From Deltaproteobacteria bacterium (GTDB lineage: Bacteria > Myxococcota > Kuafuiibacteriia > Kuafuiibacteriales > Kuafuiibacteriaceae): a stretch of 64,000 nucleotides of DNA. How positions within the stretch are numbered: the stretch's first letter is position 1; each line of letters opens with the position of its first letter. Under the pieces are notes generated by a model, which saw nothing but the letters and a program-made list of their open reading frames with translations, was not told the origin of the DNA and did not search any database. Both the position numbers and the translations under genes were made by a program. Positions 27,156-55,058 of the stretch are shown here, one piece after another. The stretch covers positions 192,001 to 256,000 of the forward strand of contig JAVJQW010000043.1 of the NCBI GenBank assembly GCA_040218735.1. Reading direction: 5' to 3'.

Positions 27156-27791
27156 GTGTCGCTCCTGTCGGTCCTGCTCGCGAGGCTCGACCCCGACGCC
27201 GACGCACGTCGTGTCGCACGTGTCTTGGCCGGCGACGCGCGCGAGACCGACGCGCTCGTGGATCAGCTGATGGGTCCGATCCAGCGGCGCGTCGCCTGGG
27301 TGCTCAGCAAGGGGAGGCGGTCGGCCAGTCGCAACGACGTCCTCGACTACACCCAAGACGTCCTCGTGAAGCTCTTCGAGGACGACCACCGGATCCTGCG
27401 GTCGTGGTCCCCGGACAAGGGGGCGTCCTTGGAGTCCTTCGTGCAGCTCGTGGCGCAGCGCTTGGTGCTCTCGTCGCTCCGCAGCGGGCGAAAGAGCGGC
27501 TGGGCCGAGGATCCGACGCTCAACGAAGATCTCGAGCGACAGGTTTCGACGACTGACGTCGAACAGCAGGCATGGAGCAAGGACACGCTGCACACCATCC
27601 TCGATCGTATGGAGGCGGAGCTGACCCCGCGCAGCTGGGCGTTGTTCCGCGCGCTCTTCGTGGAGGAGCAGGAGCCGGCTGAGGTCGCCAAGAAACACGA
27701 CATGAGCCTCAACGCCCTCTACTCCTGGCGGAGCCGCTTTCGCACGCAAGCGCGGGCCTGGGCCGAGAAGGGCGAAGGGACGGATTCATGA
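27156..27791 (+). CDS. ECF-type RNA polymerase sigma factor
   Basis: DVLDYTQDVLVKLF..LRSW.P.KGASLESFV and the sigma4 segment EVAKKHDMSLNALYSWRSR. The GTG start at 27156 is inferred. Confidence 0.85.
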   Translation: MSLLSVLLARLDPDADARRVARVLAGDARETDALVDQLMGPIQRRVAWVLSKGRRSASRNDVLDYTQDVLVKLFEDDHRILRSWSPDKGASLESFVQLVAQRLVLSSLRSGRKSGWAEDPTLNEDLERQVSTTDVEQQAWSKDTLHTILDRMEAELTPRSWALFRALFVEEQEPAEVAKKHDMSLNALYSWRSRFRTQARAWAEKGEGTDS

Positions 27792-28444
27792 GCTCGGACG
27801 ACGACCTCGAGGCGCTCGCGCGTCTCAGCCGCGAACGCGACGCGGAGCGCGACGCGTGGGAGGCCGACGCCGCCAACGCGCCGGACCTGCTGGCCCCGCT
27901 CACGGATCTCGAGCGCCAGCGGATCAAGAACGCCGTGCGCGCCGGTCGCGCGCCGGCCTCGCGCCGGAGGGTGTGGGCGGGCGTCGCGGGCGTCGTCGCG
28001 ATCGCTGCGGCGATCCTCCTCGCGCTGCGGCTCGGTCCGCAGGGTGCCGCCGTACCGGAGTATGGGTTCGAGCTGAGATCACAAGGCTTCTCGGAGGTCC
28101 GGAGCGCCACCGTCGCGGACGCGTGGACCTACGCCGACGGGATGACCGTGGACATCGTGCTCCGCCCCGTGAGCGCGGCGCCCGGGAGCACGTGGGCCGC
28201 GGTGTACCGACGTGACGGCGCGGCGGTGACCCGTTTGGACTGGACGCCGGTGCGCTCCGAAGGTGGGAGCCTCCGCTTCAAGGGCGCGGTCGGTGCTCAG
28301 CTGAAGCTGCCGACCGGGGCGTCGCAGCTCGTGTTCGTGGTGGGGGCGCGTGACGTGGTCGAGCGGTGGGATCCGAAGAGCGACGTCGACGTGCAGGTGT
28401 TCGAACGGGTGATGACGGTGCGGGAGGGAGATGCTCGTGAGTAG
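27788..28444 (+). CDS. Putative single-pass membrane anti-sigma factor
   Basis: ATGA overlap with the sigma gene. Short cytoplasmic N-terminus, TM VWAGVAGVVAIAAAILLAL, beta-rich C-terminal domain. Confidence 0.65.
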   Translation: MSSDDDLEALARLSRERDAERDAWEADAANAPDLLAPLTDLERQRIKNAVRAGRAPASRRRVWAGVAGVVAIAAAILLALRLGPQGAAVPEYGFELRSQGFSEVRSATVADAWTYADGMTVDIVLRPVSAAPGSTWAAVYRRDGAAVTRLDWTPVRSEGGSLRFKGAVGAQLKLPTGASQLVFVVGARDVVERWDPKSDVDVQVFERVMTVREGDARE

Positions 28445-29483
28445 AGGTGTCCGAACCAAGACGTGTGTACTCATCATCACCGCGGGGGTGCTCGCTGCGT
28501 GTTCGAGCAACACTCGGCTCCAGCGGATGAACCGGGAGGCCCCGGCGCCGATGCCGCGTGCCGACGATCGCGTCGAGCTCGACGAGCAGATGAAACTCAC
28601 CATCGTCCGCTTCGGGAAGTGCACGGCGACTCACGTGGGCCGTGGTTATTTCCTCACGGCGGGCCACTGCGTCCGTGAGGCGCGTGGGTTCGAAGGCCGC
28701 GACAGCTCACCTTGCCCTCACGCGCTCGCGTGGGGTGACGGTGAAGGCGGGGCGTGTCGGGTGGAGCTCTACCGCTTCGACGACGACCACGACTACGCGC
28801 TGCTGAGGTTGGCGGATCCCGAGCTGGCGGAGGACCTCCCGTTGGCGCCGATCGACTACCAGTTCAGCTGGAAGAAGGCGCGTCGCCGCCCGCTGACCGT
28901 GGCGGGTTATTCGAAGGGCACGGCGCAAGTCGACGAGACGTGCAACGGCCGGGTCGCCACGGGGAATTTGGTCAAACACGACTGCACGACCGAACCCGGT
29001 GACAGCGGTAGCGCGCTCGTCGACAGGGCGACTCAGCACGTCATCGGAGTTCACGGCGGCGCGTTGAACAACGGCGAAAACTACGGCTCGCCGGTCGAGC
29101 TCATCCCGTGGGCGGAGAGTTTGTGTGTGGCCGAGACCGCATCCAAACCCATCCCGATCGTCGCAGGCGAACGCCCGGTCACCTTCAAGGTCTCGACGTC
29201 CCACAAGGGCGGTGCGTTCGGACAGATCGCGATGACGCTGTCGGGCACGATGCAGACGCGGCAGCTCGACATTCGCATCTTCCACCCGCTCGGTGAGCTC
29301 CAGGTCGACACCAGCACCGCGGTGGAGTGGAAGGGTAACGATTGGGTATGGAATGACATGTACTTGCTCGCCGGCGACGACGAGCGAGTCGAAGGACCCT
29401 GGTCTGTCGAGATTTCGAGCAGCGGCAAGGGTGGGAAGGGGACGAAGGGTTATGTGCAGGGTAGAGTTCTGGTCTGTCCTTAG
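28431..29483 (+). CDS. Trypsin-like serine protease lipoprotein with C-terminal beta domain
   Basis: Lipobox LAAC. Catalytic triad motifs LTAGHC, DYALL and GDSGS. Confidence 0.9.
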   Translation: MLVSRGVRTKTCVLIITAGVLAACSSNTRLQRMNREAPAPMPRADDRVELDEQMKLTIVRFGKCTATHVGRGYFLTAGHCVREARGFEGRDSSPCPHALAWGDGEGGACRVELYRFDDDHDYALLRLADPELAEDLPLAPIDYQFSWKKARRRPLTVAGYSKGTAQVDETCNGRVATGNLVKHDCTTEPGDSGSALVDRATQHVIGVHGGALNNGENYGSPVELIPWAESLCVAETASKPIPIVAGERPVTFKVSTSHKGGAFGQIAMTLSGTMQTRQLDIRIFHPLGELQVDTSTAVEWKGNDWVWNDMYLLAGDDERVEGPWSVEISSSGKGGKGTKGYVQGRVLVCP

Positions 29484-29937
29484 TTGTTTGGTGATGAGTT
29501 TGGCGCCGCTGAGCTGCGCGCAGCAGCAGCGCGCCACCGGTGGCGCGTCGGGCGGCGGAGAGGCGACGCCGATGTCCGCGAAGACGCCACAACCGGAGGA
29601 GCTGCCCTGTGGAGTCTGCAACGTCGCGATCAGCGGCCGGGTGACCGGCGCCTGGCAGGAGTCGGTGTGTATCTCGGACCCCGCGAACCCCGGTGATCCC
29701 GGATCGAACCCATCGGTCGCCTATCCGGTGCGGGAGCCACGCATCGAGGTCATCGAGGGTGAGCAGAGCGGGAAGCAGTTTGCGGTGGGCTGCTCGGTCG
29801 AGGAGTTCTCGGCGCCGGAGGTGTTCGAAGGTGAAGTCGAGGACGGCGGTAATCCCAAGGACTGGGTCACCGCGTATCTGTGGGTGACCGACGCAAACGG
29901 CAAGGACTGCTACTCACTCCTCAAATTGGACAAGTGA
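29452..29937 (+). CDS. Cys-rich hypothetical lipoprotein
   Basis: MCRVEFWSVLSCLVMSLAPLSC signal/lipobox, GAAGGG upstream. Start is uncertain (29452 or 29494). Confidence 0.6.
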   Translation: MCRVEFWSVLSCLVMSLAPLSCAQQQRATGGASGGGEATPMSAKTPQPEELPCGVCNVAISGRVTGAWQESVCISDPANPGDPGSNPSVAYPVREPRIEVIEGEQSGKQFAVGCSVEEFSAPEVFEGEVEDGGNPKDWVTAYLWVTDANGKDCYSLLKLDK

Positions 29938-29938
29938 G

Positions 29939-32572
29939 TCATTCCCGAACCCAAACCCGAAACGCGCTCGCGTCCCAAGGTGTTTTGGCGTCCGCGAGTG
30001 AGACGCGTGCCGCACGCAGCGCACGTCCCCAGTCCTCTTGGGTCTCGAGGCTCTCGTAGAACGCGTCGACCCATCGACTCGTGTGCGCGTCGTCGACGGG
30101 GCGCACCGCAGCGACGACGACTTCCGCGCCCTCCACCAAGAACGCCTGCGCCATCGAAAACGCCGCCGTGTCGCGTGATCCGAGGTCACACGCCGCGAGG
30201 ACGACGTGTCGAGGGCCGCCGCCGAGGGAGAGCACATCGACCACTTCGAAGCGTCGCTCGCCGCCGAGCGGGAAGCCACCGTCGAGGCCGTCGAGGCCCA
30301 GCCGGAGCCCGTGGCCGGAGTAGTGAAGGAGCGCGGGCCGGCGCCGAAGCGCTGCGCTGAGTCGAGACACGGTGACTTCCGTCTTTAGGGTCTCGACGGC
30401 GAAACCTCGCGCTTCGAGTGACGCCGCGACGCGTTGCGCCTCCGCGGTTGCGGTCGGGAGCTCGCCGGTCGGGTCGGCGACGATCAGCGCAGTGTGCGTT
30501 GTTTGCTTCACGGGCGGCGGCGGGCCGAGGTCGGCGTGGAACACGATCACCGCGCGGCGGAAGAGCGGCGAGCCATCGATGTCGATCGTGTCCCAGGGGA
30601 GGGCGAGCAGGCCCGGGTGTGCGTAGATCCGGACACGCTCGGCTCCGACCAGCGCCTCACCCAAAGACACGAGACCCGCAGCCGTGCTCGCTGTGGCGAC
30701 GTAGGTGAGCCCGTCGTCCTTCTGCACCCAGGCGTGCATCCCGGTCCGACCCGGGTGGGCGAACACGAGCGCTTCGCCGGGCCGAACGCGAAGGGGAGCG
30801 AGGGGCGACGAGTCGGCGTGTTGGAAGAGCGCGTCGAGGGCGCGCCGGGCTTTCAGCACCTTCGCGGCCGTCGAGCGCTCCACCTCGGGGAGCGCGCTCG
30901 CCGGGAGCGTCCAGGCGCGCTCCAACGCGGCGTCGAGATCCGCGCGTGCGCGTCGGACTTCGACCTGCAGACGTTCGACGGCGTCATTCGTGCCGCCTTC
31001 GCGCCACGCGCTTCGCTGTCGAGCCCACGCGGCGTTACCGCGGATGATATCCCGCATCGCGGCGATCGCCGCCTCGCCGCGGCCGAGACGCGAGAGCGTT
31101 TCGACGAGCGCGATCGCGGAGTCCTCGCGCTTCGCCAACAGGGTGTCGCGGCCCTCCCCCAGCGGCACGCGCCGCGCCCACCCTTGCAAGGCGGCTTGCG
31201 CATCGCGGTACGCGGCGGCGGCGGCGCCGAGATCACCTCGCGCCTCCTCGGACTCACCGCGGCCGAGGTGAGCCTGCCATTCGATGTCCAACGCCTGAAG
31301 CTCCTGGGCGAGCCGCCCGAGCCGCGCATAGCTCTCCACACCACGCTCGGGGGAAGCCGTACGCGCCAACCACGCCGCGGTCAGGTGCTCGAGGTTGAGA
31401 CGGGACGTGACATCCGGTTGCGCGACCGCCGCCTGTGCGGCGTCGAGGTGCTCGCGAGCGCCGTCGCTGTTCCCCTCGAACAGCGCCGCCCACCCCGCGT
31501 TGAGCTCGGCGTTGAAGCGCCGATGCGGCATTGGACACTTCGTTCGGTAGAGCGTCGCGCTCTCGCGGAGCTCGTCGAGCTTCTTTCCGGCGAAGAGGTC
31601 GGGCGCCTGTTGGCGTCCCAGCAGCGTGTGCCAGCCCAGGTTGTTGAGCACCTGGGCGCGCTGACAGGCGGAGAGGGTGGCGTCCGCGAGGTGCAGACGA
31701 AGTCTCTCGAGCTCTTCGGCGAGCTCTCGCCATCGCCCCATCAGTCGAAGGAGGAAGATTTGGTACTGACGCAGGTCGATGACGCTTCGGCCGAGCCGAT
31801 CGTTCAGCGCGATCGCGGTGCGTACGTGGCGAAGCCCCGCGCGCGGGTCGCGCCAACGTACGGCGAGCGTGGTTGCGCCGTAGTGGTACCAGAGCGACGC
31901 CCAGGTATCGTCACGTGCGAGCACCTCCAGGTTGGCCAGCGCCGCTTTGGCGTCGCGCGGCGGGAAGCCCCGCTCGACGAGGAGGTGATTCAGCGCGCCG
32001 AGATCCGCGACCAAGCTCTTCACCCGCCCTCCGCGCTCGTGTTCCCTGATGCTCGCCTCGAACGCCTTACGCGCACGTTCGTTCTCCCCGCGCGCCATCC
32101 AGTTCCGCGCGCGTTGGCCGAGCGCCCCGGCGACCGTTCCCGTGGCGACGATCCGGTCGAGCAGCGCGTCCGCGGCGTCGAGGTCACCCGCGTGCCGGAG
32201 CTTTGCCACCGCGCCGAGGTCGGGGCCTGGAGGGTGGGCCGCGAATCGTACGCGGGATGGTTGGTGCCCTTTGACCTCGATCGCGAGCAAGCCCTCCGGC
32301 GCCGTCACCTCGAAGCGCAAGCCGCCTTGCACCGGTGTGGTGGGGCCGAGGGGCAGGGGGCGGTCGTCGACGCGGAGCGAGACCTTGTCGCGGTTCGGCG
32401 TGTCGACCCAGACCGTGACCGCCGACTTCGACGGCGTGACCTCACACACCGGCCCGACGCGTCGCTCCAGGCACCCGATCATCTCGACGGTGGGCGCGGG
32501 GAGGAGCGGCGCTTTGGGCTCCCAGGTGCAGGCGGCGAGCGTGAGCAACGTCGCCGCGAATCGCCCCCGCAC
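29939..32572 (-). CDS. Lipoprotein TPR-CHAT (caspase-like) protease
   Basis: Lipobox LTLAAC, TPR-like helices, and a CHAT domain with ALIVADPTGELP, His motif LLHYSGHG, Cys motif VVLAACD and AFLVEGA. Confidence 0.9.
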   Translation of the reverse strand: MRGRFAATLLTLAACTWEPKAPLLPAPTVEMIGCLERRVGPVCEVTPSKSAVTVWVDTPNRDKVSLRVDDRPLPLGPTTPVQGGLRFEVTAPEGLLAIEVKGHQPSRVRFAAHPPGPDLGAVAKLRHAGDLDAADALLDRIVATGTVAGALGQRARNWMARGENERARKAFEASIREHERGGRVKSLVADLGALNHLLVERGFPPRDAKAALANLEVLARDDTWASLWYHYGATTLAVRWRDPRAGLRHVRTAIALNDRLGRSVIDLRQYQIFLLRLMGRWRELAEELERLRLHLADATLSACQRAQVLNNLGWHTLLGRQQAPDLFAGKKLDELRESATLYRTKCPMPHRRFNAELNAGWAALFEGNSDGAREHLDAAQAAVAQPDVTSRLNLEHLTAAWLARTASPERGVESYARLGRLAQELQALDIEWQAHLGRGESEEARGDLGAAAAAYRDAQAALQGWARRVPLGEGRDTLLAKREDSAIALVETLSRLGRGEAAIAAMRDIIRGNAAWARQRSAWREGGTNDAVERLQVEVRRARADLDAALERAWTLPASALPEVERSTAAKVLKARRALDALFQHADSSPLAPLRVRPGEALVFAHPGRTGMHAWVQKDDGLTYVATASTAAGLVSLGEALVGAERVRIYAHPGLLALPWDTIDIDGSPLFRRAVIVFHADLGPPPPVKQTTHTALIVADPTGELPTATAEAQRVAASLEARGFAVETLKTEVTVSRLSAALRRRPALLHYSGHGLRLGLDGLDGGFPLGGERRFEVVDVLSLGGGPRHVVLAACDLGSRDTAAFSMAQAFLVEGAEVVVAAVRPVDDAHTSRWVDAFYESLETQEDWGRALRAARVSLADAKTPWDASAFRVWVRE

Positions 32573-32584
32573 ACGCGGACGGTG

Positions 32585-33550
32585 TCAGAGCCGCGAGCGA
32601 GCGTCCAGCGGTCGGGGCGCGTGCACCGCACCCACGGTACGAACCACGGCGCCGATCGCCTTCACGAAGTGACCCGCGCGCATCCGAGGGCGCCGCGCGA
32701 AGACGTCGTAGCCGGACGCCTCGATGTCGTCGAGCGACGCGCGATTCAGCGCGCCGAGCGTCGCGGTCGCAAGCGAAGCCATCCTCGGGAGGCGCGCGAT
32801 GCCCGGCGCCGCGGCGTCGAACAGCGCGCGGTTGTGATCGACGAGGCTGGCCATGAAGGTGCGCCACCCTGTCGACGTCGAATGCTCCGCGAGCGCATTG
32901 GGATCGACGCCGTGCGATCGGAGCTCGTCCTTGGGCAGGTACACGCGGCCCTCTTCGAAGTCGGAGGCGATGTCGCAGATCATGTCCGTGAGCTGCGCCG
33001 CCGTGGCGAACAGCGCCGCATAGCGGAGCGTCTCGCGGTCCGAGGCCCCGAAGAGGCGCGACGTCAGCAGCCCGAGGGGGGCCAGGACGTCGAAGCAGTA
33101 GTCGATGAGGTCGTCGAGCGTCCGGTGGTCCGGCGCGACGTGGTCATCGCCGATGCCCTCGAGCTGGGCTTCGATCCACACACGCGGGATGCGGCGTCGC
33201 TTTCGCACGTCTGCCAACGCGATGAGCAGCGGATCGTCCGGAGGTACGGGCGCGAGGGTGTCGCGGACGAGCTTGGCCCACAGCGCCCGGCCGACGGGGC
33301 TCGGATCCTCGCTCAGCACGTCGACTTCGCGTAACCAGCCGCCCACCACGAAGAAGTCACGACGCTGGTGCGCCGGCAGCAGCAACCCGGCGTAGTACAC
33401 CCGCGGATAGAAGCGTCGCGTGGTGGCGGCGGCGTGCCGATAGGCGTCGTCGAGCTGCGTTCGATTCACCGCCGCCGCGGACACCCCCACCTCACCCGGC
33501 GCGAGCAACGTGTCGATGCGCGCGTCGAGCCGCCGCACCCAAGCACTCAC
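32585..33550 (-). CDS. Squalene/phytoene synthase-family protein (divergent motifs)
   Basis: LIDYCFDV, AAQLTDMICDIASDFEEGRVYLP and IEASGYDVF. The GTG at 33550 overlaps the upstream stop (GTGA). Confidence 0.85.
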   Translation of the reverse strand: MSAWVRRLDARIDTLLAPGEVGVSAAAVNRTQLDDAYRHAAATTRRFYPRVYYAGLLLPAHQRRDFFVVGGWLREVDVLSEDPSPVGRALWAKLVRDTLAPVPPDDPLLIALADVRKRRRIPRVWIEAQLEGIGDDHVAPDHRTLDDLIDYCFDVLAPLGLLTSRLFGASDRETLRYAALFATAAQLTDMICDIASDFEEGRVYLPKDELRSHGVDPNALAEHSTSTGWRTFMASLVDHNRALFDAAAPGIARLPRMASLATATLGALNRASLDDIEASGYDVFARRPRMRAGHFVKAIGAVVRTVGAVHAPRPLDARSRL

Positions 33551-34317
33551 GATGCCACCCGCGCCTGCGTCGGCACCGGCGCTGCTCGGCGGACCCGAAA
33601 CCGTTTCATCGCGAGCTTGGCGAGGGCGCCGAGGAGCATCGGAATGTGTATCGGCACCAACACCAACAGGCCGTAGCCCTCGGCGTAGCGCGGGTTCCGT
33701 TCGAGGTAGAACCGCGCCGCGGCGTTCTGGGTCGCCGTCCACGCCTGGGCTTCGCCGGTCTCCTGACGCGTGCACCACCCGACGTGACAGACGCCCGGCG
33801 CGTCCGCTTCTTCCTCCAGGTGGAAGTGCGTCGCGAGCGCCCCCATCAGCGCTTCGATCTCGGGCGGCGTCTCACGCTCGGGACACGGCCACAGCTCCGT
33901 CGTGTACCGCGCGAGGACCTGGTACGACGCCGGGTTCACGGGGCACGCGAAGCCGTAGAGTCGACGCAGCGGGTACGCCAAACGAACGCACAACCCCTCG
34001 CGCGCGAGGAACGACGAACACAGCGACTGCCGACGGTAGACCGGGCGGAGCGCGACGATCGTTCGGAAGACCAACGGACGCTCGGGGCTGTCGTGCTCGT
34101 AGATCTGCGCGACGGCGTACCCGGCCAAGAAGCCGTCGTCGCGCAGGACCTGGATCCGCACGCGAATCGCCGCGCTCGGAATCAGGTAGCGCTCGAACGC
34201 CGCGCGCTCCACGCCGCCGAAGACGTCGCAGTTGAGCGCGAACAGCTCATCGACGAGCGCGGCGCGGCGCACCGGATCGAGGGACTGGGGATCGATGATT
34301 TGCGATTGAATGCTCAC
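33547..34317 (-). CDS. GNAT-fold-like hypothetical protein (possible acyltransferase)
   Basis: 3' part of ORF 33547..35004. LAGY..., ALRPVYRRQSL (motif-A-like), NPASY and RFYLERNPRY. GTGA overlap with the upstream gene. Confidence 0.6.
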   Translation of the reverse strand: MSIQSQIIDPQSLDPVRRAALVDELFALNCDVFGGVERAAFERYLIPSAAIRVRIQVLRDDGFLAGYAVAQIYEHDSPERPLVFRTIVALRPVYRRQSLCSSFLAREGLCVRLAYPLRRLYGFACPVNPASYQVLARYTTELWPCPERETPPEIEALMGALATHFHLEEEADAPGVCHVGWCTRQETGEAQAWTATQNAAARFYLERNPRYAEGYGLLVLVPIHIPMLLGALAKLAMKRFRVRRAAPVPTQARVAS

Positions 34318-35219
34318 GACAAGGCTCCTTCCCGAGCGGTCTGACGGACCCGAGCGAGCTCGGCCGGCGAATAGAGGCGTTCGAAGGCGCGACGGTCGAC
34401 GCCGATCGCCGCGGTGATGAGGGGCTGCAGTACGCGTCCGAGGACGGGCTGCAGCGCGACCCACTGCGACGCACGGAGCAGCCGCGGGAACGGTCGCTGC
34501 GCGACGCCGGGGCGACGCATCGCGAGCTGCATCCGCTTGAAGGCTTCGCGCAGGCGCGCGCCGTCGGGGTCGAAACGATCGAGCGGCTCGATCACGATGT
34601 CGCGCACGAACGGACGCGCGACCGCCATCATGCGGAGCAGCTCGACCGCACCACGGAGCGACGCTCGCTCGACCGGCCCACGCGCCAGGCGCTCCGACAT
34701 GTAGAAGTCGATCGCGACGTGCCGCGACTCGTCGCGGTTGATGCGCGCCATCGCGTCGCGGCATGTCGGGTCGTCGCAGGCGTCGTCGAGCGCGCGCAGG
34801 AGCGCGATGTCGAGGATCAGCTCGCCGGTCGTGACGTAGACGTTGGCGATCTCCGGCGAGAACGCGCGTGCCGTCGCGACGAGGCGCGGGGCGAAGCGCT
34901 CGAGGTTCGGGTTGATCGTGTACGCGCGGTAGCCGTGCACGTCGTAGTGGCGTGCGAGGCGCTCCGCGACGACGGCGTGCCGCTCCTCCTCCTCGACGAA
35001 ACACCCGTAGATCTCGGCGAGCACCGGCTCGTCGACGCGCGCTTGCATGACCTTGAACAGGTCACGCGCGATACGCTCGATCCCGGCCATGTCGACGAAC
35101 GTCTGCACGAGCGTCATCTCCTCTTCGCGGCCCATCGGACGCGGCGGTCGGCTCCAATCGAGGTCGTCGACGCACCACCGCTCCTGCCGGCACTTCGACA
35201 GCAACTTCTCCAGATTCAT
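34314..35219 (-). CDS. Ferritin-like di-iron protein (acyl-ACP desaturase/AurF-like superfamily)
   Basis: W..DDLDWS N-terminus. Di-iron ligand pattern E...EEERH...E...DESRH. Confidence 0.82.
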   Translation of the reverse strand: MNLEKLLSKCRQERWCVDDLDWSRPPRPMGREEEMTLVQTFVDMAGIERIARDLFKVMQARVDEPVLAEIYGCFVEEEERHAVVAERLARHYDVHGYRAYTINPNLERFAPRLVATARAFSPEIANVYVTTGELILDIALLRALDDACDDPTCRDAMARINRDESRHVAIDFYMSERLARGPVERASLRGAVELLRMMAVARPFVRDIVIEPLDRFDPDGARLREAFKRMQLAMRRPGVAQRPFPRLLRASQWVALQPVLGRVLQPLITAAIGVDRRAFERLYSPAELARVRQTAREGALS

Positions 35220-35230
35220 GGCGAGTGACC

Positions 35231-36187
35231 TCAGGCCGGGACGGCGCCGAAGCGGCGTTGCCGACCGGCGAACCAGGCGATCGCGTTGCGGAGGTGTTCG
35301 GCGCGGTAGTCCGGCCACATCGTGTCGTCGAAGAGCAGCTCGGCGTACGCGTTCTCGACGAGGAGGAAGTCGCTGAGGCGCTGCTCGCCGCCGGTGCGGA
35401 TCAAGAGGTCCACGTCGGGGAGGTCGTGGGTCCACATCGACTGCCGCAGCAGCGCGTCGTCGACGTCCTCGGGGGCGAGCCGACCGTTGCGGCTCTGCTC
35501 GCAGAGGGAACGCACCGCGCTCACGAGATCGGTGCGGGCGCCGTACGCGATCGCGATCGACAGCTGCATCGCGCTGCCGTCCGCGGTGGCGGCCATCGTC
35601 GCCTCCAGGCTCCGCCGCGTCACGTCGGGGACGCGCTCGAGGTCGCCGATGATCTCGAACCGGATCCCCAGCTCGACGAAGTCATCACGCTGACTCGCCG
35701 CGTGCTCCGCGAACAGGCGCATGATCGTCGCGACCTCGTCCTGCGGTCGCTCGAAGTTCGCCGTGCTGAACCCGTAGAGCGTCAGGTGCCGAACCCCCAG
35801 CGCACGCGCGGCGCGGTAGGTACGCGTCGCGGCGTTGGCACCTTCGACGTGCCCCCAGCTCCGCGGCCGTCGGCGTCGCGTCGCCCAGCGACCGTTGCCG
35901 TCCATGATGATCGCCACGTGCGCCGGGACCACGCCCGGCGTGCCTTCCGAGTGTGTCGGCTCCACGTCCGTGACGGCGTCGCGCTCCAGCGCGAGCATCG
36001 CGTCGAACATCGTCCGCGAGATCCGCACCCCGAGCCGAAGCGCGGTGCCGCGGGGGTCGCGGCGGAAGTCTTCGAGGAGTCCGGGCTCTGCGCTCAGGCG
36101 CTGCCAGAGCGCGTCGAGCGCGTGACGGGGGCTCGCGTCGAGGACGCGCTCCACGGGGGGCCGAAGGGGGGACGGTGCGACGTTCAT
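35231..36187 (-). CDS. cis-prenyltransferase (UppS family) with an N-terminal extra helical domain
   Basis: HVAIIMDGNGRWA, GHVEGA, YGFSTANFERP, YGAR, DLLIRTGGEQRLSDFLL, WPDY and RRFG, preceded by an extension of about 85 aa. Confidence 0.92.
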   Translation of the reverse strand: MNVAPSPLRPPVERVLDASPRHALDALWQRLSAEPGLLEDFRRDPRGTALRLGVRISRTMFDAMLALERDAVTDVEPTHSEGTPGVVPAHVAIIMDGNGRWATRRRRPRSWGHVEGANAATRTYRAARALGVRHLTLYGFSTANFERPQDEVATIMRLFAEHAASQRDDFVELGIRFEIIGDLERVPDVTRRSLEATMAATADGSAMQLSIAIAYGARTDLVSAVRSLCEQSRNGRLAPEDVDDALLRQSMWTHDLPDVDLLIRTGGEQRLSDFLLVENAYAELLFDDTMWPDYRAEHLRNAIAWFAGRQRRFGAVPA

Positions 36188-36260
36188 GCGTGCCTCGCAG
36201 ATCCGTTCGCGAGGAGGGTCGCGGACCTTGCACGAAATTCTGCGGAGACGTCGCGATAGC

Positions 36261-36313
36261 CGGGGGGCGAGCCCCCCGCTCCTGGAGGGCGCAGCGGTGT
36301 GGAGCGGGGGCTC
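36261..36313. promoter_or_regulatory. Overlapping inverted repeats in the divergent intergenic region
   Basis: CGGGGGGC-GA-GCCCCCCG at 36261-36278. 36269-36282 can alternatively pair with 36301-36313. Confidence 0.4.
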
Positions 36314-36380
36314 ATCCGGCCGGTGGCGACGGAGGCGGCCGTGGTCGGGCGTCGGCACGATCCCTGCGAATCGACGCCTC

Positions 36381-37742
36381 ATGCCGAACCCCATCCGAAT
36401 GACCCCGATCGCCGTCGCCAGCCTCGCGCTGCTCGCGCTCGGCGCGTGCGCCGGTGAGGAGCCGGCCGACCTCACGCCGACCGCCCCTCGCGACGGCGGC
36501 CCCGGCGGAGCCGAACCGCGTGACGCCGGTGCGCACGACGTGGGTACGCACGACGCGGGCTCACACGACGGCGGCTCGCAGGACGCCGGGAGCCGCGACG
36601 CCGGGCCGCTGAGCCCCCCGGTCTGCAACCCACCGCCGCTCCTCGTGCTCGCCGACATCCCCGACAACCCCTCGCTCGACGACGGCGACCCCGACACCGT
36701 CGCGATCTTCGAGGTCGACGGCCACGCGCTGATCGGCAAACACGTCACGGACGTGGCGGCGGCCGAAGGGGGCCTGAAGCTGTGGCAGGAGCTCACGCTT
36801 CGAATCCCCGAGAACCAGCTCCTGGACCTCGTGCAGTTCGAGATCTCACTCGACACCGACCCCGTCGCCTACTTCAACCGGCGCGGCGCGGTGACCACCG
36901 AGCGCTACGGGCTGAAGCTCGGCTTCTCGGTCGACAACTTCACGCGCAACGACCCCGACCCCTGCGCTCCCCTCGTGCCGCGCCGCGGGACGTTCGACTG
37001 GAGCCTCGTCCACGAGTTCGGTCACCTGCGTGGCTGGGTCGACCGTTCCTGGGACCGCTTCCTCGAAGACTTCGAAGACGTGCGCGGGTCGGGCGAAGGG
37101 TACCCGGAGGACGGGTCACCGTCGCTCGACGGCGACTTCGTCACGTCCTACGCCGAGCGCGCCGACGGCGACGAAGACCACGCCGAGTCCTGGACGACCT
37201 ACGTGATGCTCGCGGAGGACGCCGTCGGTCCGGCGATGCCCGACGAACCCCTCGCGCGCACCAAGGTGCGTTGGATGCGCGACCAGCCGGGCCTCGCCGA
37301 GCTACGCCGGGCCATTCGCATCACCGAACCGGGCGGGGGCGGCGTCGTCGCTCCGGCGCCCCGACTCGCCGAGCGACTCCCGATCGAGCCGCTCGACGTG
37401 CCCGCTTGGTTGCACGGGACGTGGGAGGGGACGTTCGTCGAGGGCGGCGAGACGATCGAGAAGCGCTTCATCTTCACGATGGACGACGTCGTCGAGGTCA
37501 CGCTCTCGGGCGGCGTCGAGGTCGAGCGACAGAGCCTGCAGGCGCTGGTCGACGCCCAGCGCGTCGGGCGCCTCGTCGTGAACCTGCGCGAGCCGACGCT
37601 GTACGGGTACAACGCAGCGGTGTCCCCGAACTACCGCATGCCGCTGGAGGACAGCTTCCTACGCTACACCGATGTGTCCGGGACCGTGCTCTGGAGCCGC
37701 CTCGAAGGCCCACAGGACGCACCCCTCACGAAGATCGACTGA
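36381..37742 (+). CDS. Zinc-metallopeptidase-like lipoprotein
   Basis: Lipobox LGAC, xxDAG linker, HEFGH (HExxH) and FVTSYA...EDHAESW third-ligand motif. Confidence 0.8.
   Translation: MPNPIRMTPIAVASLALLALGACAGEEPADLTPTAPRDGGPGGAEPRDAGAHDVGTHDAGSHDGGSQDAGSRDAGPLSPPVCNPPPLLVLADIPDNPSLDDGDPDTVAIFEVDGHALIGKHVTDVAAAEGGLKLWQELTLRIPENQLLDLVQFEISLDTDPVAYFNRRGAVTTERYGLKLGFSVDNFTRNDPDPCAPLVPRRGTFDWSLVHEFGHLRGWVDRSWDRFLEDFEDVRGSGEGYPEDGSPSLDGDFVTSYAERADGDEDHAESWTTYVMLAEDAVGPAMPDEPLARTKVRWMRDQPGLAELRRAIRITEPGGGGVVAPAPRLAERLPIEPLDVPAWLHGTWEGTFVEGGETIEKRFIFTMDDVVEVTLSGGVEVERQSLQALVDAQRVGRLVVNLREPTLYGYNAAVSPNYRMPLEDSFLRYTDVSGTVLWSRLEGPQDAPLTKID
36519..36606 (+). repeat. Imperfect 15-bp coding repeat (xxDAG/DGG linker, about 6 copies)
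   Basis: Encodes RDAGA HDVGT HDAGS HDGGS QDAGS RDAG. Confidence 0.6.
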
Positions 37743-39321
37743 CGCGATCCAGCGAGAAGACGGTGACCGCACCGCCGCGCGCCGCGTCGACGACGACGAT
37801 CTCCACCACGCCGTCGTCGTCGACGTCCACCACCGCGATCCACGGCCGCTCGTAGGTTCGCTTCAGCACCAACCCCGCCGAGACGGTGCGGCCCCCCGCC
37901 GCGACGACGACGAAGAGCGCGTGTGCGTCGGTTGATACGCGCGACAACGCGACCACCTCCCACGTCCCGTTGCCATCGACGTCACCGAGCTCCACGGCCT
38001 CCGGCGTCCCGGTGATCGGCAACGGAGGCTCCGTCAGCAACCCGTCGCTGGTCGTGACGCGCGGGCGAACGGCCAGCGCGATCGATCGGCCCTCCGCGAC
38101 GGTGGTGAGCGCGACGTCGGGTGCGTCGCTCCACTGCCCGCCGAAGCCGAGGTCGACGATGCGCGGATCGAAGGGCAGGGGGACGAGCCCGTCATCGTTC
38201 ACCCAGAGCGCTCCGCGGTCCGGCGCGAACACGACGCGGCGGTCGTCGACACACCCGCTCCGCGGGGTAGCGCCGAGGTCGGCGACGTCGTGCGGCGCCC
38301 ACGACCCGTCGAACGCGACGGGGCCGCCGTCGAAGCCGACCGCGAAGAATGCCGGTCCACCTCGACAGGGGCTCAGGTCGAGGATCCAACGAGGTGCGCT
38401 CGAGCTCGCGAGGGGAACGGCGGCGCCGACCGATCCGTCGTCGTTCAACGCGCGCCGCGAATCGCTCGACAACAGGAACGCGGAGGAGCCGGCGCGTCCG
38501 AGTCGCCACTGGCCCGCGACCGTCGAGGTGTCCGCGCCGACGAACGTGACCGACGTTTCGTCCGCCCCGCGGACGGCGAAGGCGACGCCACCTCCGAAGA
38601 CGATCGGGTCGACCTCGCCGACGGGGATCGTGAGCTCCTCTTCCGTCCCAGGCACGAACGCGAGCGCGACGCTCTCCCGCGCGCCCCATCGCGAGCGGAC
38701 GCTCACCTCCAAGGGACCGGGGCGTGGATCCGACAGCTCGACGAAGCGCACGACGCGTCCGTTCACTTCGGTGCGTACGATCTCGGTCCCCACGCGCGCC
38801 GCGGTCATCCCGGCGCCGAACGCTTCCCACCGGACGTCGGCGTCCGGTACGGGGCGGTCGAGTCGGTCCTGCACCTCGACGTACCAGCGCTCGAAGTCTC
38901 GTTCGCGGTCGACCGTCAGGCCGAAGCTGCCGCCCTCGACGGTCACGATCGTCACGGGGGCGAGCGCGATCTCGACGGTCGTCGTCGTCTCGATCTTCCC
39001 GACCGAAGCACACCCCGCGACGACCGCTGTGCCTCCTGCATCGAGCCCGCGCACGACGAACAGCTTGGTGCCGACGCGGCGGATGCTCCCGAGGTCGGGC
39101 GCCGAGTCCTCGAACGATCCGCTCAGCTGCGGGAGCGGCGCGACGAGCCCGAACGCCAGGTCGTCGCAGTCGTACGCCGCGTCGTCCGGTTGGTACACCT
39201 CGAGCTCGAAGTGCGCGACGCGCTCCGAGAGCTCGGGATCGTCGAGGTGGACGTCGAGCTCCAGCGAGGGTGCGCCGCAGGCCGAGAGCAGCGCCGATGC
39301 CATCGCGACTTGAACTCTCAC
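37726..39321 (-). CDS. Hypothetical lipoprotein with an FG-GAP-like C-terminus
   Basis: The GTG at 39321 overlaps the upstream stop. Lipobox LLSAC, plus GDVDGNG and DVDDDG motifs. Confidence 0.7.
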   Translation of the reverse strand: MRVQVAMASALLSACGAPSLELDVHLDDPELSERVAHFELEVYQPDDAAYDCDDLAFGLVAPLPQLSGSFEDSAPDLGSIRRVGTKLFVVRGLDAGGTAVVAGCASVGKIETTTTVEIALAPVTIVTVEGGSFGLTVDRERDFERWYVEVQDRLDRPVPDADVRWEAFGAGMTAARVGTEIVRTEVNGRVVRFVELSDPRPGPLEVSVRSRWGARESVALAFVPGTEEELTIPVGEVDPIVFGGGVAFAVRGADETSVTFVGADTSTVAGQWRLGRAGSSAFLLSSDSRRALNDDGSVGAAVPLASSSAPRWILDLSPCRGGPAFFAVGFDGGPVAFDGSWAPHDVADLGATPRSGCVDDRRVVFAPDRGALWVNDDGLVPLPFDPRIVDLGFGGQWSDAPDVALTTVAEGRSIALAVRPRVTTSDGLLTEPPLPITGTPEAVELGDVDGNGTWEVVALSRVSTDAHALFVVVAAGGRTVSAGLVLKRTYERPWIAVVDVDDDGVVEIVVVDAARGGAVTVFSLDRVSRSS

Positions 39322-45600: not shown

Positions 45601-48471
45601 GTGCTGGCCCGACTGCTCGGAATCCGCGACGAGGATCGACGCGACACCCTCGTCGCGTTCGCCGTCCTCGCCGCGATGATGGCGGGCCACGCGCTCCTGG
45701 AGACCGCCCGCGACGCCCTGTTCCTGGCCAAGCTCGACGCCGACCGACTGCCGCTCACGTACATCGCGATCGCGGGCCTCGCGCTGGTCGTCGGTGCTGC
45801 CAACCGGCGCCTCCTCGAACGCTTCTCCGCCCGGCGCCTGCTCGCGTTCACGCTCCTCGTCGGCGCCGGGATCACCGCGGCGTTCTACGTCTTCCTCGAT
45901 CCCGCCGACCCGCTGATGCTCGGCGCCTTCTACGTCTGGGTCGGCCTCCTCGCGACGATGGTCGTGCTCCAGTTCTGGCTGCAGCTCGCCGCCGTGTTCG
46001 ACGTGGGGCAGGCGAAGCGTGTCTTCTCCATCGTCGGCGCCGGCGGCCTCGTGGGCGCGACGTTGGGCTCGCTCACTGCGAGCGCCGTGTTGGCGATCGC
46101 GGACGCACGCGCGCTGATGATCGCGGGCGTCGTTTGTTTCGTCGTCGCGGCGGTGCTCCCGATCGGCTTTTCGAAACCGCCGGAGCCGGCGGTGCCGCGT
46201 CGCCGAGCGTCACGTGAGCGCGCGCGCCCGTTCCGCAGCCCTTACCTGAGTCGGCTCTTCGTCGTCGCGCTGACGTCGGCCGTGTTGATCACCGGCGTCG
46301 ACTACCTGTTCAAGGCCGCCGTCGCCGCGGACCACGCCGACGCCGCTTCCCTCGGTGCGTTCTTCGCGCGCTTCTATGCCGTGATCAACGCGGTGTCGCT
46401 CGTCGTGCAGCTCGCCATCGCGCCGCGGTTGCTCCGGTCGCTCGGTGTCCATCGCACGCTCCTCTTCCTCCCGGGCGCGTTGCTGTTCGGCGCTGCGGGG
46501 TTCGCGGTGTTCGGCGGGCTCGTCCCCGCCGTGCTCCTCAAGAGCGCCGACGGCGCGCTGCGGCACTCCGTGAACCGGACCGGCAACGAGATCCTCTACC
46601 TCCCGCTGACCGCCGACGTGCGTGCGCGCTTCAAGAGCTTCGTCGAGGCGGTCGGACAACGCGGCGGGCAGGCGCTCGCGTCCGTGCTCCTCCTCGCGGC
46701 GACGCTCGCGGGCGCCGAGCACTTCCACATCGCCGTGGCGCTCGTGGGGCTCGCGGTCGTGTGGCTCGCCGCGGTGCGCACCATCGAGCCGCACTACCTG
46801 GAGCTGTTTCGTCGGCAGCTCCGCGAGGGCAAGGTCGACACCAACGTCGCGGTCCCGGATCTCGATCTCGGCTCGCTCGAGGCGCTCATCGCGGCGCTCT
46901 CTTCGCCGGACGACAACGAGGTCCTCGCCGCCCTCGACATGTTCGCGGCGTTCAAGAAGACGAACCTGATCCCCGCGCTGATCCTGTTCCACCCGTCGTC
47001 GGCGGTGGTCACGCGCGCTTTCGATCTGTTCTTCGCGACGGAGCGCACCGACGTCCTCCGCGTCGCCGAACGTCTCCTCGACCACTCGGCCGGCGCCGCG
47101 GCTTCGCCGCGCCCCCTGAGCACCTCGCGCGCTTCCCCCCTCACGGGGGGGCGCGCACTCGAGCACCCCGAGCCCGAGGTGCGGGCCGCTGCGCTTCGGC
47201 TGTTCGCGTCGGCCGGTGCGCACGACGACAAACTCGCCAGCCACGTCGACTCCGAGCACCCCGAGCTGCGCGCCGTCGCGCTCGCGTGGCAGGCACGCCG
47301 CGGGCTCGCGTCCGACGAGAGCATCAACGCCGGCCTCGAAGCCCTCGTCGACTCCGATGACGTCCGCGACCGACTCGCCGCGCTCTACGCGGTGCGTGAC
47401 GCGCCGCCGGAGCGCTTCGCGCACATCGCGCTGCGCCTCGCCGACGATCCCGACTGGTCCGTGCCGCCGCGCGTCGCGCGCGCGATGGCCGAGACACCGT
47501 CGCCCGAGTACCTCCCCGCGCTGGTTCGGCTCCTCGCGCACCGCTCCGGTCGCGCGGCTGCGCGCGTCGCGTTGTTGAAGCTCGGCGAGCCCGCCCTGGA
47601 AGCGCTCCGCGCCGCCCTCCTCGATCCCGCCGCGCCGCGCCCGGTTCGGCTGCACGTCCCGCGGACGCTCGCGCGCTTCGACGACCCGCGCGCGTGGGAC
47701 ATCCTCATCGAGCGCGTGCAGGTCGAGCAGGACGATCGAGTGCTCTTCAAGATCCTCCGCGCCCTCAATCGCATGCAGTTCGACGGACGCGACGGCTCCT
47801 TCGACCGTGCCGCGTTGCTGCAGCGCGCGAGGTCGCTCGTCGAGCAGGCGGTCACCGCTCTGTCGTGGCGCCTCTGCGTTTCCGCGTACCTCGAACGCAA
47901 CCCGTCGGCGAAGACCCCGGCCGCGCAACTTCTCTTGCAGCTCACCGAGGAGAAGGAGCAGGGCGCGATGTACCGTACGTTCCGCTTGCTCCCCGTGGTG
48001 CTGCCTCGCGAGGACTTCCGGAGCATCTACTTCGGGCTCCGCAGCGAAGAGGCGAAGACCCGCGCATCCACGCGCGAGCTGCTGTCCCACGTCATCGACC
48101 CGCCCGTGCGTGACCTACTCCTGTGTATGGTCGACGAGCTCTCGGACCTCGGTCGCCTCGAAGCCGCGCAAACGCTGTTCCGACCGCCGCATCGGTCGGC
48201 CTTCGTCGCCGCGCTCGACGCCGACGACGCGACCCTGCACCGCGCCTACGCGAAGGTCCTCCGCGACGTGCTCGACGATCCGAACCTCACGCTCCGCGGC
48301 GTCGCGGGGCACCACATCACGGAGCTCGGGCTCGGCGAGCTCGCGGACGCGGATCGCCGCGCCGAGGACAGCTCGCTCACCTCCCTCGCGGAGCGCGCGT
48401 CGGGGCTGCTCGCCAAGCGACGCCGACCGGTGTCCGTACGAGAAGTACGGGAAGTCGGGCAGGCGCAGTAG
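45601..48471 (+). CDS. Npt/TLC (ATP/ADP translocase-like) MFS transporter fused to HEAT repeats
   Basis: About 12 TM segments with ETARDALFL, QFW...FDVGQAKRVF, DYLFK and EILYLP, followed by a HEAT-repeat tail. Confidence 0.85.
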   Translation: MLARLLGIRDEDRRDTLVAFAVLAAMMAGHALLETARDALFLAKLDADRLPLTYIAIAGLALVVGAANRRLLERFSARRLLAFTLLVGAGITAAFYVFLDPADPLMLGAFYVWVGLLATMVVLQFWLQLAAVFDVGQAKRVFSIVGAGGLVGATLGSLTASAVLAIADARALMIAGVVCFVVAAVLPIGFSKPPEPAVPRRRASRERARPFRSPYLSRLFVVALTSAVLITGVDYLFKAAVAADHADAASLGAFFARFYAVINAVSLVVQLAIAPRLLRSLGVHRTLLFLPGALLFGAAGFAVFGGLVPAVLLKSADGALRHSVNRTGNEILYLPLTADVRARFKSFVEAVGQRGGQALASVLLLAATLAGAEHFHIAVALVGLAVVWLAAVRTIEPHYLELFRRQLREGKVDTNVAVPDLDLGSLEALIAALSSPDDNEVLAALDMFAAFKKTNLIPALILFHPSSAVVTRAFDLFFATERTDVLRVAERLLDHSAGAAASPRPLSTSRASPLTGGRALEHPEPEVRAAALRLFASAGAHDDKLASHVDSEHPELRAVALAWQARRGLASDESINAGLEALVDSDDVRDRLAALYAVRDAPPERFAHIALRLADDPDWSVPPRVARAMAETPSPEYLPALVRLLAHRSGRAAARVALLKLGEPALEALRAALLDPAAPRPVRLHVPRTLARFDDPRAWDILIERVQVEQDDRVLFKILRALNRMQFDGRDGSFDRAALLQRARSLVEQAVTALSWRLCVSAYLERNPSAKTPAAQLLLQLTEEKEQGAMYRTFRLLPVVLPREDFRSIYFGLRSEEAKTRASTRELLSHVIDPPVRDLLLCMVDELSDLGRLEAAQTLFRPPHRSAFVAALDADDATLHRAYAKVLRDVLDDPNLTLRGVAGHHITELGLGELADADRRAEDSSLTSLAERASGLLAKRRRPVSVREVREVGQAQ
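47086..47166. repeat. 81-bp in-frame palindromic insertion (REP/RPE-like)
   Basis: Two hairpins (47097-47111 and 47127-47156) lie between imperfect direct repeats CTCGACCAC (47077-47085) and CTCGAGCAC (47158-47166). Confidence 0.6.
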
Positions 48472-48480
48472 GAGGTATCG

Positions 48481-49410
48481 ATGGTCGCCGTCGCCCAACC
48501 GTCCTCGAACGTCCAGCGGATGCTCACGCTCCGCACCTTCCCCGCGTTCTCGGCGCTCGCGCCCGACGAGCTCGTGGTCATGGCCGAGCAGTGCACCGAT
48601 CACTTCTTCGCGAAGGGGGAGGTGATCTCGAAGGGCGGCGTCCCGGTGCCTGGTCTTCACCTCGTCGTGGAGGGCAAGGTGCAGATCCTCCGTGACGGCA
48701 AACCGTACCGACTGATGAAGGAGCGCGAGTCGGTCGGCGGCATCGCGTCGCTGACGCAGGACCCGCGCGGCGTCGACGCGGTCGCGGTCGAGGACACCAC
48801 GACGCTGGCGCTGACGCGGGAGCGGATGGAGGACGTCTTCGAGGACAACTTCGCGATCATGTCCGCGGTGATGCGGGTCCTCGCGCGGACGCTCGTGGAA
48901 GCGCGGCAGCTCCGCGGTTCGACGGCGGGGTTCGCGGTCGAGAAGGAGCACGAGGGGCAACACCGCGCCGAGCCGCTGGATCTGATGGACCGCATCTTCT
49001 TCCTCACCCGCACGCTCAGCTTCTCCGGCGCGAGCATCGAGAGCCTCGCCGAGCTCGCGAGCGGCGCGCAGGAGGTTCGTTACGCGCCGGGTGACGTGCT
49101 GTGGAACGTGGGGGATCCGGCCGGACACTTCGTCGCGATCCACAGCGGCCTCGTCGCGTGCGCGACGGCCGACGCGAAGCAGCAGTTCGCCCTCGGCGCG
49201 GGCTCCACGGCGGGGGGCATGGACGCTCTGGCGTCGGACCCGCGCTGGTTCGGTGCGACGGCGCAGACCCCGGTCGTCGTGCTGCGCGTGGAAGTCGCAG
49301 ACTTCTTCGATCTGTTCGAGGACAACGTCGAGATGTCGATGGCGATGATGCGCACGCTCGCGTTTGCGATCGAGCGCCAGTACGAAGCGATGATGGCGGG
49401 GCGTGACTAG
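48481..49410 (+). CDS. Tandem cyclic-nucleotide-binding domain protein
   Basis: Two Crp-like cNMP domains (GEVI..G..LHLVVEGKV and GDVLW..GDP..F..I.SG.V), no HTH. AGGAGG SD. Confidence 0.85.
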   Translation: MVAVAQPSSNVQRMLTLRTFPAFSALAPDELVVMAEQCTDHFFAKGEVISKGGVPVPGLHLVVEGKVQILRDGKPYRLMKERESVGGIASLTQDPRGVDAVAVEDTTTLALTRERMEDVFEDNFAIMSAVMRVLARTLVEARQLRGSTAGFAVEKEHEGQHRAEPLDLMDRIFFLTRTLSFSGASIESLAELASGAQEVRYAPGDVLWNVGDPAGHFVAIHSGLVACATADAKQQFALGAGSTAGGMDALASDPRWFGATAQTPVVVLRVEVADFFDLFEDNVEMSMAMMRTLAFAIERQYEAMMAGRD

Positions 49411-54506: not shown

Positions 54507-54602
54507 CGGCCCTGGCCAAGTGGTGGTCGGATCCCGCACACTGGAGACGTGCCGAAGGTAGGAACCGAATCCAGTGGAGCACCGGCCATTCCCCCGCGGG
54601 CG

Positions 54603-55046: not shown

Positions 55047-55058
55047 TACGCGACCCTC

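Follow-up and report, generated by a model that had tools for sequence, protein, structure and literature searches.

A lineage-restricted four-gene cluster in a Kuafuiibacteriaceae genome as a candidate operon for a specialised isoprenoid-derived lipid

A compact set of four genes, designated G1 to G4, lies on a 64,000-nucleotide stretch of DNA (hereafter the window; assembly GCA_040218735.1, contig JAVJQW010000043.1, positions 192,001 to 256,000) from the large genome of a marine, myxobacterium-like deltaproteobacterial member of the Kuafuiibacteriaceae (Myxococcota). G1 encodes a cis-prenyltransferase resembling undecaprenyl-diphosphate synthase (UPPS), G2 a ferritin-like di-iron carboxylate protein, G3 a GNAT-fold protein and G4 a highly diverged member of the squalene/phytoene synthase (SQS/PSY) family, and a gene for a CHAT-domain lipoprotein follows. 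These four predicted cytoplasmic enzyme genes are, on the sequence, translationally coupled, with catalytic motifs intact in all four. The explanation favoured here, with confidence that is about evenly balanced, is that the genes are transcribed together as an operon, restricted to this lineage, that makes a specialised lipid derived from isoprenoids; a single operon of this kind is preferred because the genes are tightly packed on one strand, are collinear in relatives and have intact active sites.

With a G+C content of about 70%, the window contains many spurious open reading frames; the five genes from G1 to the CHAT gene, all on the minus strand, stand out by G+C at third codon positions (GC3) and by family matches. 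All 45 genes called across the window were scanned with Pfam. A spacer of 11 bp (35220-35230) separates G1 from G2, the GTG start of G3 (34317-34315) and the TGA stop of G2 share the tetranucleotide GTGA, the GTG start of G4 (33550-33548) overlaps the stop of G3, again as GTGA, and 12 nt lie between G4 and the CHAT gene. The initial annotation had described this arrangement from the letters of the sequence, and it was right on coordinates, on spacing and on families, as well as in its statement that crtI, hpn, shc, frr, cdsA and dxr are missing, none of which appears among the 45 called genes in the Pfam scan. Public gene calls give the operon genes the same protein lengths. Nothing points to a mobile island, because the flanks of the cluster carry no tRNA and no meaningful repeats and the GC3 of the four genes (0.88-0.92) is ordinary, within the window range of 0.83-0.96.

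Table 1. Positions of the operon genes and associated features in the window
Feature	Position	Strand	Description
G1, cis-prenyltransferase	35231-36187	-	318 aa, ATG start; accessory, UPPS-like
G1 N-terminal extension	35933-36187	-	85 aa
G2, ferritin-like di-iron carboxylate protein	34314-35219	-	301 aa, ATG start
G3, GNAT-fold protein	33547-34317	-	256 aa, GTG start; hydrophobic C-terminal helix
G4, highly diverged SQS/PSY-family protein	32585-33550	-	321 aa, GTG start
CHAT-domain lipoprotein	29939-32572	-	877 aa, GTG start at 32572
ECF-like sigma factor	27156-27791	+	TIGR02937 34.2 bits, below cut-off
218-aa protein	27788-28444	+	between the ECF-like sigma and protease genes
Trypsin-like protease	28431-29483	+	Trypsin_2
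Presumed promoter region	36188-36380	.	divergent intergenic, 193 bp, from G1 to the lipoprotein gene 36381-37742 on the other strand

In the proposed pathway, an allylic primer from one of three trans-prenyl synthases would be extended by G1 with isopentenyl diphosphate to a dedicated Z-polyprenyl diphosphate; G4 would ionise the prenyl diphosphate and then either couple or hydrolyse it, giving a hydrocarbon or alcohol backbone; the di-iron site of G2 would desaturate or hydroxylate the lipid chain; and G3, with its GNAT fold and hydrophobic C-terminal helix, would act at the membrane as an acyltransferase. Co-transcription would extend to the CHAT lipoprotein gene, which nevertheless belongs to a separate, multi-copy ECF/protease/CHAT module. 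Consistent with a lipid product, relatives of G3 adjoin lipid-modifying di-iron enzymes, lipases or adenylating enzymes.

Central to this explanation is the accessory status of the two isoprenoid genes. The host genome (11.6 Mb, 96.5% complete) has two matches to PF01255 and two to PF00494. The other cis-prenyltransferase, 42% identical to G1, is the housekeeping uppS on contig C29, which holds the pyrH-frr-uppS-cdsA context with an M50 protease gene two genes further on; G1 lies outside such a context and is not the sole copy, and the separate uppS anticipated by the initial annotation is thus present. The other SQS_PSY gene is crtB on contig C59, flanked by crtI and a hydrolase gene in a carotenoid cluster that also holds a lycopene cyclase, a polyprenyl synthase and, nearby, a MerR/B12 regulator. 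G1 and G4 are accessory copies because the housekeeping uppS and crtB stand on other contigs, and three trans-prenyl synthase genes are found elsewhere in the genome. Known partners of G4 were sought genome-wide: no squalene-hopene cyclase (SHC) or oxidosqualene cyclase (OSC) was found, just two fragments of 24-27 bits; squalene epoxidase gave no match; nothing exceeded the HpnE cut-off (best 75 bits against 283); and crtI sits in the separate C59 cluster. A role for G4 as squalene synthase for hopanoids or sterols was rejected for want of cyclase, epoxidase and HpnE in the genome, and for the same reason G4 is not regarded as the squalene source of a known pathway.

G1 matches PF01255 at 8e-71 (238.5 bits, cut-off 27) and TIGR00055 at 232.9 bits (cut-off 109.55), and matches solved UPPS structures at 1e-60 and 5e-56, with gap-free alignments to the isoprenyl transferase 7jli (1e-60) and to residues 18-244 of E. 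coli UPPS. Its scores rank UPPS of the E. coli and Bacillus type (193-209 bits) above short-chain Z-farnesyl diphosphate (Z-FPP) synthase (112 bits) and cyclolavandulyl diphosphate synthase (48.8 bits). The diphosphate-binding motif DGNGRWA is kept, its residues being invariant in a 50-sequence alignment, and within it N98 corresponds to UPPS Asn-28, the position at which lavandulyl diphosphate synthase carries His-78 according to PMC7839719. G1 therefore looks like a true UPPS and not like a lavandulyl-type enzyme, and the initial suggestion of a short Z or irregular product finds no support in these scores, in the alignment or at the retained Asn. Two features set G1 apart. In the FSxxNWxRP motif, the Trp at E. 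coli position 75 is replaced by Phe in G1 and its three nearest relatives, a change present in just 6 of 123 aligned sequences; the nearest relatives are unplaced metagenomic proteins of 245-247 residues with 63-65% identity. In addition, the N-terminal 85 residues match no Pfam model, lack a paralogue elsewhere in the genome and are missing from 119 other cis-prenyltransferases, and 77 of the 85 are identical in the relative on a 64,885-bp contig described below. The similarity of this domain to NF038399, a model of the NHLP clan (leader-like for ribosomally synthesised and post-translationally modified peptides), is a weak lead and not a finding (E 0.076, 13 bits, below cut-off). In a quick tree, G1 joins its near relatives (SH-aLRT 96) and then a group with a Nannocystaceae-labelled protein (99), while the host UppS falls in a different clade.

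Equally distinctive is G4, which matches PF00494 at 1.3e-45 (156.7 bits, cut-off 26) and remains far below the HpnC, HpnD and CrtB cut-offs: 125.9 bits against HpnD (cut-off 278.6), 118.8 against HpnC (cut-off 250.45) and 77-84 against the CrtB models (cut-offs 480-550). Among solved structures, HpnC (3.9e-15) comes closest to it, along with a CrtM and a phytoene synthase; some of its relatives at 29-33% identity do exceed the cut-off for HpnD or HpnC, with G4 itself scoring far below all of these. Both Mg-binding acidic motifs, D77..E81-D82 and D189..D193..D197, are kept, with D77/E81/D82 and D193/D197 present in all three variants, as are all 15 columns invariant across 35 relatives and the host CrtB, including R74, D77, Y151, D193, D197 and the RxYLP segment. 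It deviates at the second Asp of motif 1, which is Val78, the third, which is Glu, and a near-invariant Asn, which is Asp. In the tree, G4 branches off on a stem as long as 2.28 substitutions per site; it belongs to neither the HpnC nor the HpnD group, and its position beside CrtB-like proteins is weak. Of the label 'head-to-head synthase' given in the initial annotation, SQS_PSY family membership stands; the catalytic label itself is a family-level guess, because G4 is outside the HpnC, HpnD and CrtB equivalogs. The general chemistry of the head-to-head enzymes of this family is reviewed in PMC7839719.

These properties bear directly on the pathway put forward in the initial annotation, in which a short Z or irregular diphosphate made by G1 would be coupled head-to-head by G4, oxidised by G2 and acylated by G3. 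The family composition fits such a route, the very long branch of G4 would suit a new substrate, no neighbouring gene is a squalene or carotenoid partner, and the unusual Trp-to-Phe change at E. coli position 75, shared by G1 and its three nearest relatives, could be read in the same direction; however, the UPPS-like scores (193-209 bits against 112 for Z-FPP synthase and 49 for cyclolavandulyl diphosphate synthase), the gap-free alignment and the retained Asn-28 argue against a short or irregular product, and GNAT proteins are mainly N-acyltransferases, which makes this route unlikely as a whole. A bolder version, in which G1 passes a Z-polyprenyl diphosphate straight to G4 with the N-terminal domain serving for docking, and a new cis-configured coupled or rearranged isoprenoid is then oxidised by G2 and acylated by G3, must be considered decidedly improbable.

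The oxidative step of the favoured operon model would fall to G2. E48, E78xxH81, E133 and E164xxH167 are invariant in all seven known members of its family, giving the ExxH ligand set of ferritin-like di-iron proteins. No Pfam or NCBIfam model was passed, the nearest being AurF (22.3 bits against 29.6) and Metal_hydrol, both below threshold; a family profile weakly matched the R2-type protein 6qrz (E 0.0085), DesA2 and designed di-iron bundles, and a language-model atlas placed G2 near acyl-ACP-desaturase-like and AurF-like clusters. In the N-oxygenases AurF and CmlI, an extra His lies on the helix of the second ExxH, as PMC7848743 describes, and in G2 residues 150-175 the sole His is H167. 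The predicted 2-His/4-carboxylate site accordingly matches the C-H/O-H-cleaving type and not the AurF-like one, an assignment made because the additional His is missing. The initial call of a di-iron enzyme is thus upheld by the ligand set and the profile matches, and its N-oxygenase option finds no support. A paralogue with 46-48% identity to G2 belongs to a conserved three-gene module of a TLC/MFS-HEAT membrane protein of about 916 residues, a 311-residue protein with two cNMP-binding domains and the di-iron protein, found in four genomes of the family (L028, at G000:C21:290646-295320, L029, L030 and L031). At 45601-49410 the window also has a diverged TLC-HEAT and cNMP pair, at 34% and 25% identity, which lacks an adjoining di-iron gene.

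For G3, which has no Pfam or NCBIfam match, the initial description as GNAT-like is confirmed at the level of a structural model: an AlphaFold2 prediction built with 82 family sequences shows a confident GNAT fold (predicted local distance difference test score, pLDDT, 95.3), with a GNAT core of about 150 residues out of 256 and a terminal hydrophobic helix at residues 225-245. At E <= 1, the GNAT sequence models Acetyltransf_1, _7 and _9 match eight, five and four of the 82 family members, and the structural matches of the model cover many specificities. The family comprises 589 clusters at 50% identity (HMMER, E <= 1e-3). Among its longer members, 16 of the 20 scanned carry a C-terminal cNMP-binding domain; such forms of about 500 residues (P0249, P0260, P0274 and others; L193-L198) are common in large genomes of family f9. 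The short forms, which share 25-31% identity with G3, adjoin a GH3 adenylating enzyme in eight of 12 annotated loci and an FA_hydroxylase or FA_desaturase in four of the 12. The short-form G3/GH3 operons (L016, L018, L019, L020, L200, L202, L203, L206) span three families of the phylum, usually include a Rieske/VanA oxygenase and sometimes a fatty-acid hydroxylase, a 943-residue FG-GAP/ASPIC protein or an MMPL exporter, and no description of them was found in a literature search.

Such contexts invite another explanation, namely that a single transcript carries two pairs of distinct function, with G2 and G3 tailoring acyl lipids or N-acyl compounds and G1 and G4 performing separate isoprenoid work, for example with G4 as a YisP-like phosphatase that would yield a polyprenol or polyprenyl phosphate. 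Relatives of G3 recur with di-iron hydroxylases or desaturases, GH3 enzymes, lipases and MMPL exporters in the absence of any isoprenoid gene, the cNMP-binding domain is frequent in the longer G3-family proteins (16/20), and the G2 paralogue has its own conserved TLC/MFS-HEAT and cNMP-binding partners. A precedent for the second pair exists in B. subtilis YisP, which acts as a farnesyl diphosphate (FPP) phosphatase according to PMC10148934. Against this division, the GTGA overlaps bind G2, G3 and G4 as one translational unit, both of the acidic motifs that characterise coupling enzymes are present in G4, and its phosphatase role is speculative, leaving the proposal doubtful though deserving of consideration beside the single-operon model.

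The collinear relatives that help to carry the single-operon model are few and close. The four-gene set is collinear solely in three very close relatives and is confined to approximately one species-level clade, so that the co-occurrence foreseen in the initial annotation is borne out in near-identical relatives alone and fails in all other genomes and loci compared; as it had stated, no described cluster of this composition is known, none having been found in the literature searched or in co-location tests. Among 20 genomes of the family, this one alone has two cis-prenyltransferase genes, the others having one, 39-46% identical to G1, and none of 19 same-family genomes has a G4 match at E <= 1e-20. 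Across 401 genomes of the phylum, no cis-prenyltransferase exceeds 48% identity to G1, no SQS_PSY protein exceeds 37% identity to G4, and relatives of G2 occur in five; G3-family genes were counted in 101 of 301 phylum genomes, a tally that takes in the unpublished genome G195, on which nothing else here depends. The four families were found together at none of 17 fetched loci, 80 metagenomic cis-prenyltransferase loci and 87 further foreign loci. The metagenome scan (query P0126) was dominated by the universal IMDGNGRW pattern and yielded 80 ordinary cis-prenyltransferase loci, at which no relative of G2, G3, G4 or CHAT was present. The sole double match in the 87 loci, a cis-prenyltransferase of genome G203 lying 4 kb from a G3-like gene, was rejected as a housekeeping uppS-cdsA. 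Pattern-based locus searches of genome contigs returned no relative for G3, P0002 or P0245, the G3 family alignment being too variable for this type of search, and tblastn searches of plasmids with G3 and G2 gave no match.

In a collection of 5.8 billion proteins, two proteins come close to G4 (95% and 87%), with the next best at 33%, and the G3 relatives stand at 96% and 88%. A 36,443-bp contig from a sponge-metagenome run (another sample) covers 29000-37998 of the window with 164 differences and no gaps, and holds CHAT and G1-G4 in collinear order; on a 64,885-bp contig of a metagenome-assembled genome, the accession numbers of G2 and G1 are consecutive, and the relatives of G3 and G4 share contigs of equal size, which points to collinearity. 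Near-identical sequence was present in runs of nine studies (aquaculture, biofloc, sponge, seawater and biofilm), one of which is possibly the origin of the window DNA. A different arrangement is seen in genome G001, of the same genus and 75% complete, where the three genes left of CHAT are conserved at 66-84% and the CHAT-G4-G3-G2-G1 series does not occur at the syntenic locus; instead, the genes that follow there (locus L015, G001:C621:14567-17352) encode a G3-like protein with 36% identity, a PGAP1/LCAT-like lipase and a membrane desaturase for fatty acids.

Comparison of these strains reveals unequal rates of change within the cluster. Relative to the window proteins, neighbouring genes are 96.6-99.1% identical on the 64,885-bp contig and 99.3-99.8% on the 36,443-bp contig; on the former, G1 stands at 95.9%, G2 at 94.7%, G3 at 87.9% and G4 at 86.9%, and on the latter, CHAT stands at 98.5%, G3 at 96.5% and G4 at 95.0%. 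Amino-acid change in G3 and G4 is thus 5-10 times that of neighbouring genes. All frames are nevertheless intact, with unchanged lengths across four strains and overlapping start and stop codons kept, none of 42 substitutions in G4 falls in its acidic motifs, and six of seven listed nucleotide differences in G4 are synonymous (mapped by hand from an incomplete list of differences). G3 and G4 evolve fast, yet are not obviously dead.

A recent and partly decaying assemblage, with G1 as an extra UPPS taken over from a different myxobacterial lineage, relaxed constraint on G3 and G4 and no coherent product, would account for the accelerated change in the latter two proteins, for the absence of the set at the syntenic locus of G001, where a G3-like gene of 36% identity stands in its place, and for the grouping of G1 with Nannocystaceae- or Polyangiaceae-labelled cis-prenyltransferases and not with the host UppS. 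It is hard to reconcile with four intact frames of constant length in four strains, with overlapping codons preserved, with catalytic residues untouched among the 42 changes in G4 and with the predominance of synonymous differences (6/7, hand-mapped), and it is accordingly held to be quite unlikely.

The specialised-lipid operon, for its part, has several observations to contend with. The set is known from one species-level clade, and its conservation therefore says little about selection for the combination, while the fast divergence of G3 and G4 fits relaxed constraint as well as diversification. The long-chain-UPPS-like character of G1 would give a product that is an odd substrate for an SQS/PSY pocket, and G2 and G3 each have paralogues in unrelated contexts. 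GNAT enzymes acylate mostly amines, and no amine-forming step is evident in the operon. At the level of RNA, run X21 yields four short contigs, which fall on the G3/G2 junction, on G2 and on G1 with identities of 91-99% (99% for two on G1), together with two further short pieces at about 83%; this library may hold DNA, so these pieces are not proof of transcription.

Regulatory signals and neighbouring genes were also considered. In the intergenic region upstream of G1, consensus scans revealed no sigma-70-like promoter; terminator-like sites numbered four against 2.5 expected in a consensus scan, with none of note upstream of G1, and Rfam gave no match at E <= 0.1. The divergent neighbour of G1 (36381-37742) is lipoprotein-like and has an HEFGH motif (possible zinc protease) and no Pfam match. 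About 15 kb from the operon, at 51702-55793, a transporter with MMPL and sterol-sensing domains is followed by a LolA-like protein, a pair that may constitute a lipid export system.

The CHAT protein matches PF12770 at 1.1e-23, and its N-terminus, ...LTLAAC, looks like a lipobox. The genes for an extracytoplasmic function (ECF)-like sigma factor, a 218-residue protein and a protease converge on the CHAT gene from the opposite strand (27156-29483, +). A module of ECF-like sigma factor, small protein, sometimes a trypsin-like protease, and TPR/CHAT lipoprotein exists in about ten copies in the genome, with paralogues on eight other contigs (C52, C58, C64, C67, C54, C42, C50 and C59), and G1-G4 are absent at these other copies. 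A simple search for ECF-type motifs upstream of G1 and of nine CHAT paralogues, where gene starts are unreliable, found nothing. The proposal of the initial annotation that the operon product is a signal for, or an output of, the CHAT/ECF system is left without linking evidence, some ten other module copies doing without G1-G4.

The wider importance of the cluster depends on which explanation holds. Were G1 to feed G4, there would be no earlier SQS/PSY-type enzyme known to act on a cis-prenyl substrate. In the literature searched, no described example linked cis-prenyl synthesis to an SQS/PSY-fold enzyme. Should all four proteins act on one substrate line, functions would follow for two unnamed families, the Myxococcota di-iron and GNAT proteins, in an organism present in sponge, aquaculture and biofloc metagenomes, from habitats in which natural products are sought. 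If the set is instead a recent, fast-drifting assemblage, it would be an ordinary lineage-specific 'terpene' region.

Staphyloxanthin-type operons combine a head-to-head synthase, oxidases and an acyltransferase, and the same logic, from synthase through oxidation to acylation in one operon, would apply here; they differ from the present cluster, which has no FAD desaturase and no glycosyltransferase and offers a ferritin-like di-iron oxidase, a GNAT protein and a cis-prenyltransferase instead. YisP, which has the SQS/PSY fold, provides a precedent for a family member that does not couple two diphosphates. For the synthase step of the staphyloxanthin-type pathway, the role of CrtM is covered in PMC7839719. 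G4 resembles the HpnC/HpnD/HpnE squalene route and the CrtB/CrtM synthases in its family and fold class and retains the GRVYLP segment and the two regions of acidic motifs, but it scores under half the HpnC and HpnD cut-offs, has Val in motif 1 and sits on a very long branch; unlike the squalene and carotenoid routes, its genome is without HpnE, SHC and OSC, and no crtI is adjacent. In common with acyl-ACP desaturase, R2/R2lox and AurF/CmlI, G2 has tandem ExxH motifs and two further Glu, and it differs from AurF/CmlI in lacking the extra His on the second-ExxH helix. G1, finally, resembles UppS in its full-length, gap-free match above cut-offs and in keeping DGNGRWA and Asn-28, and departs from it as a second copy outside frr-uppS-cdsA, with an 85-residue N-terminal domain of its own and Phe in place of Trp75.

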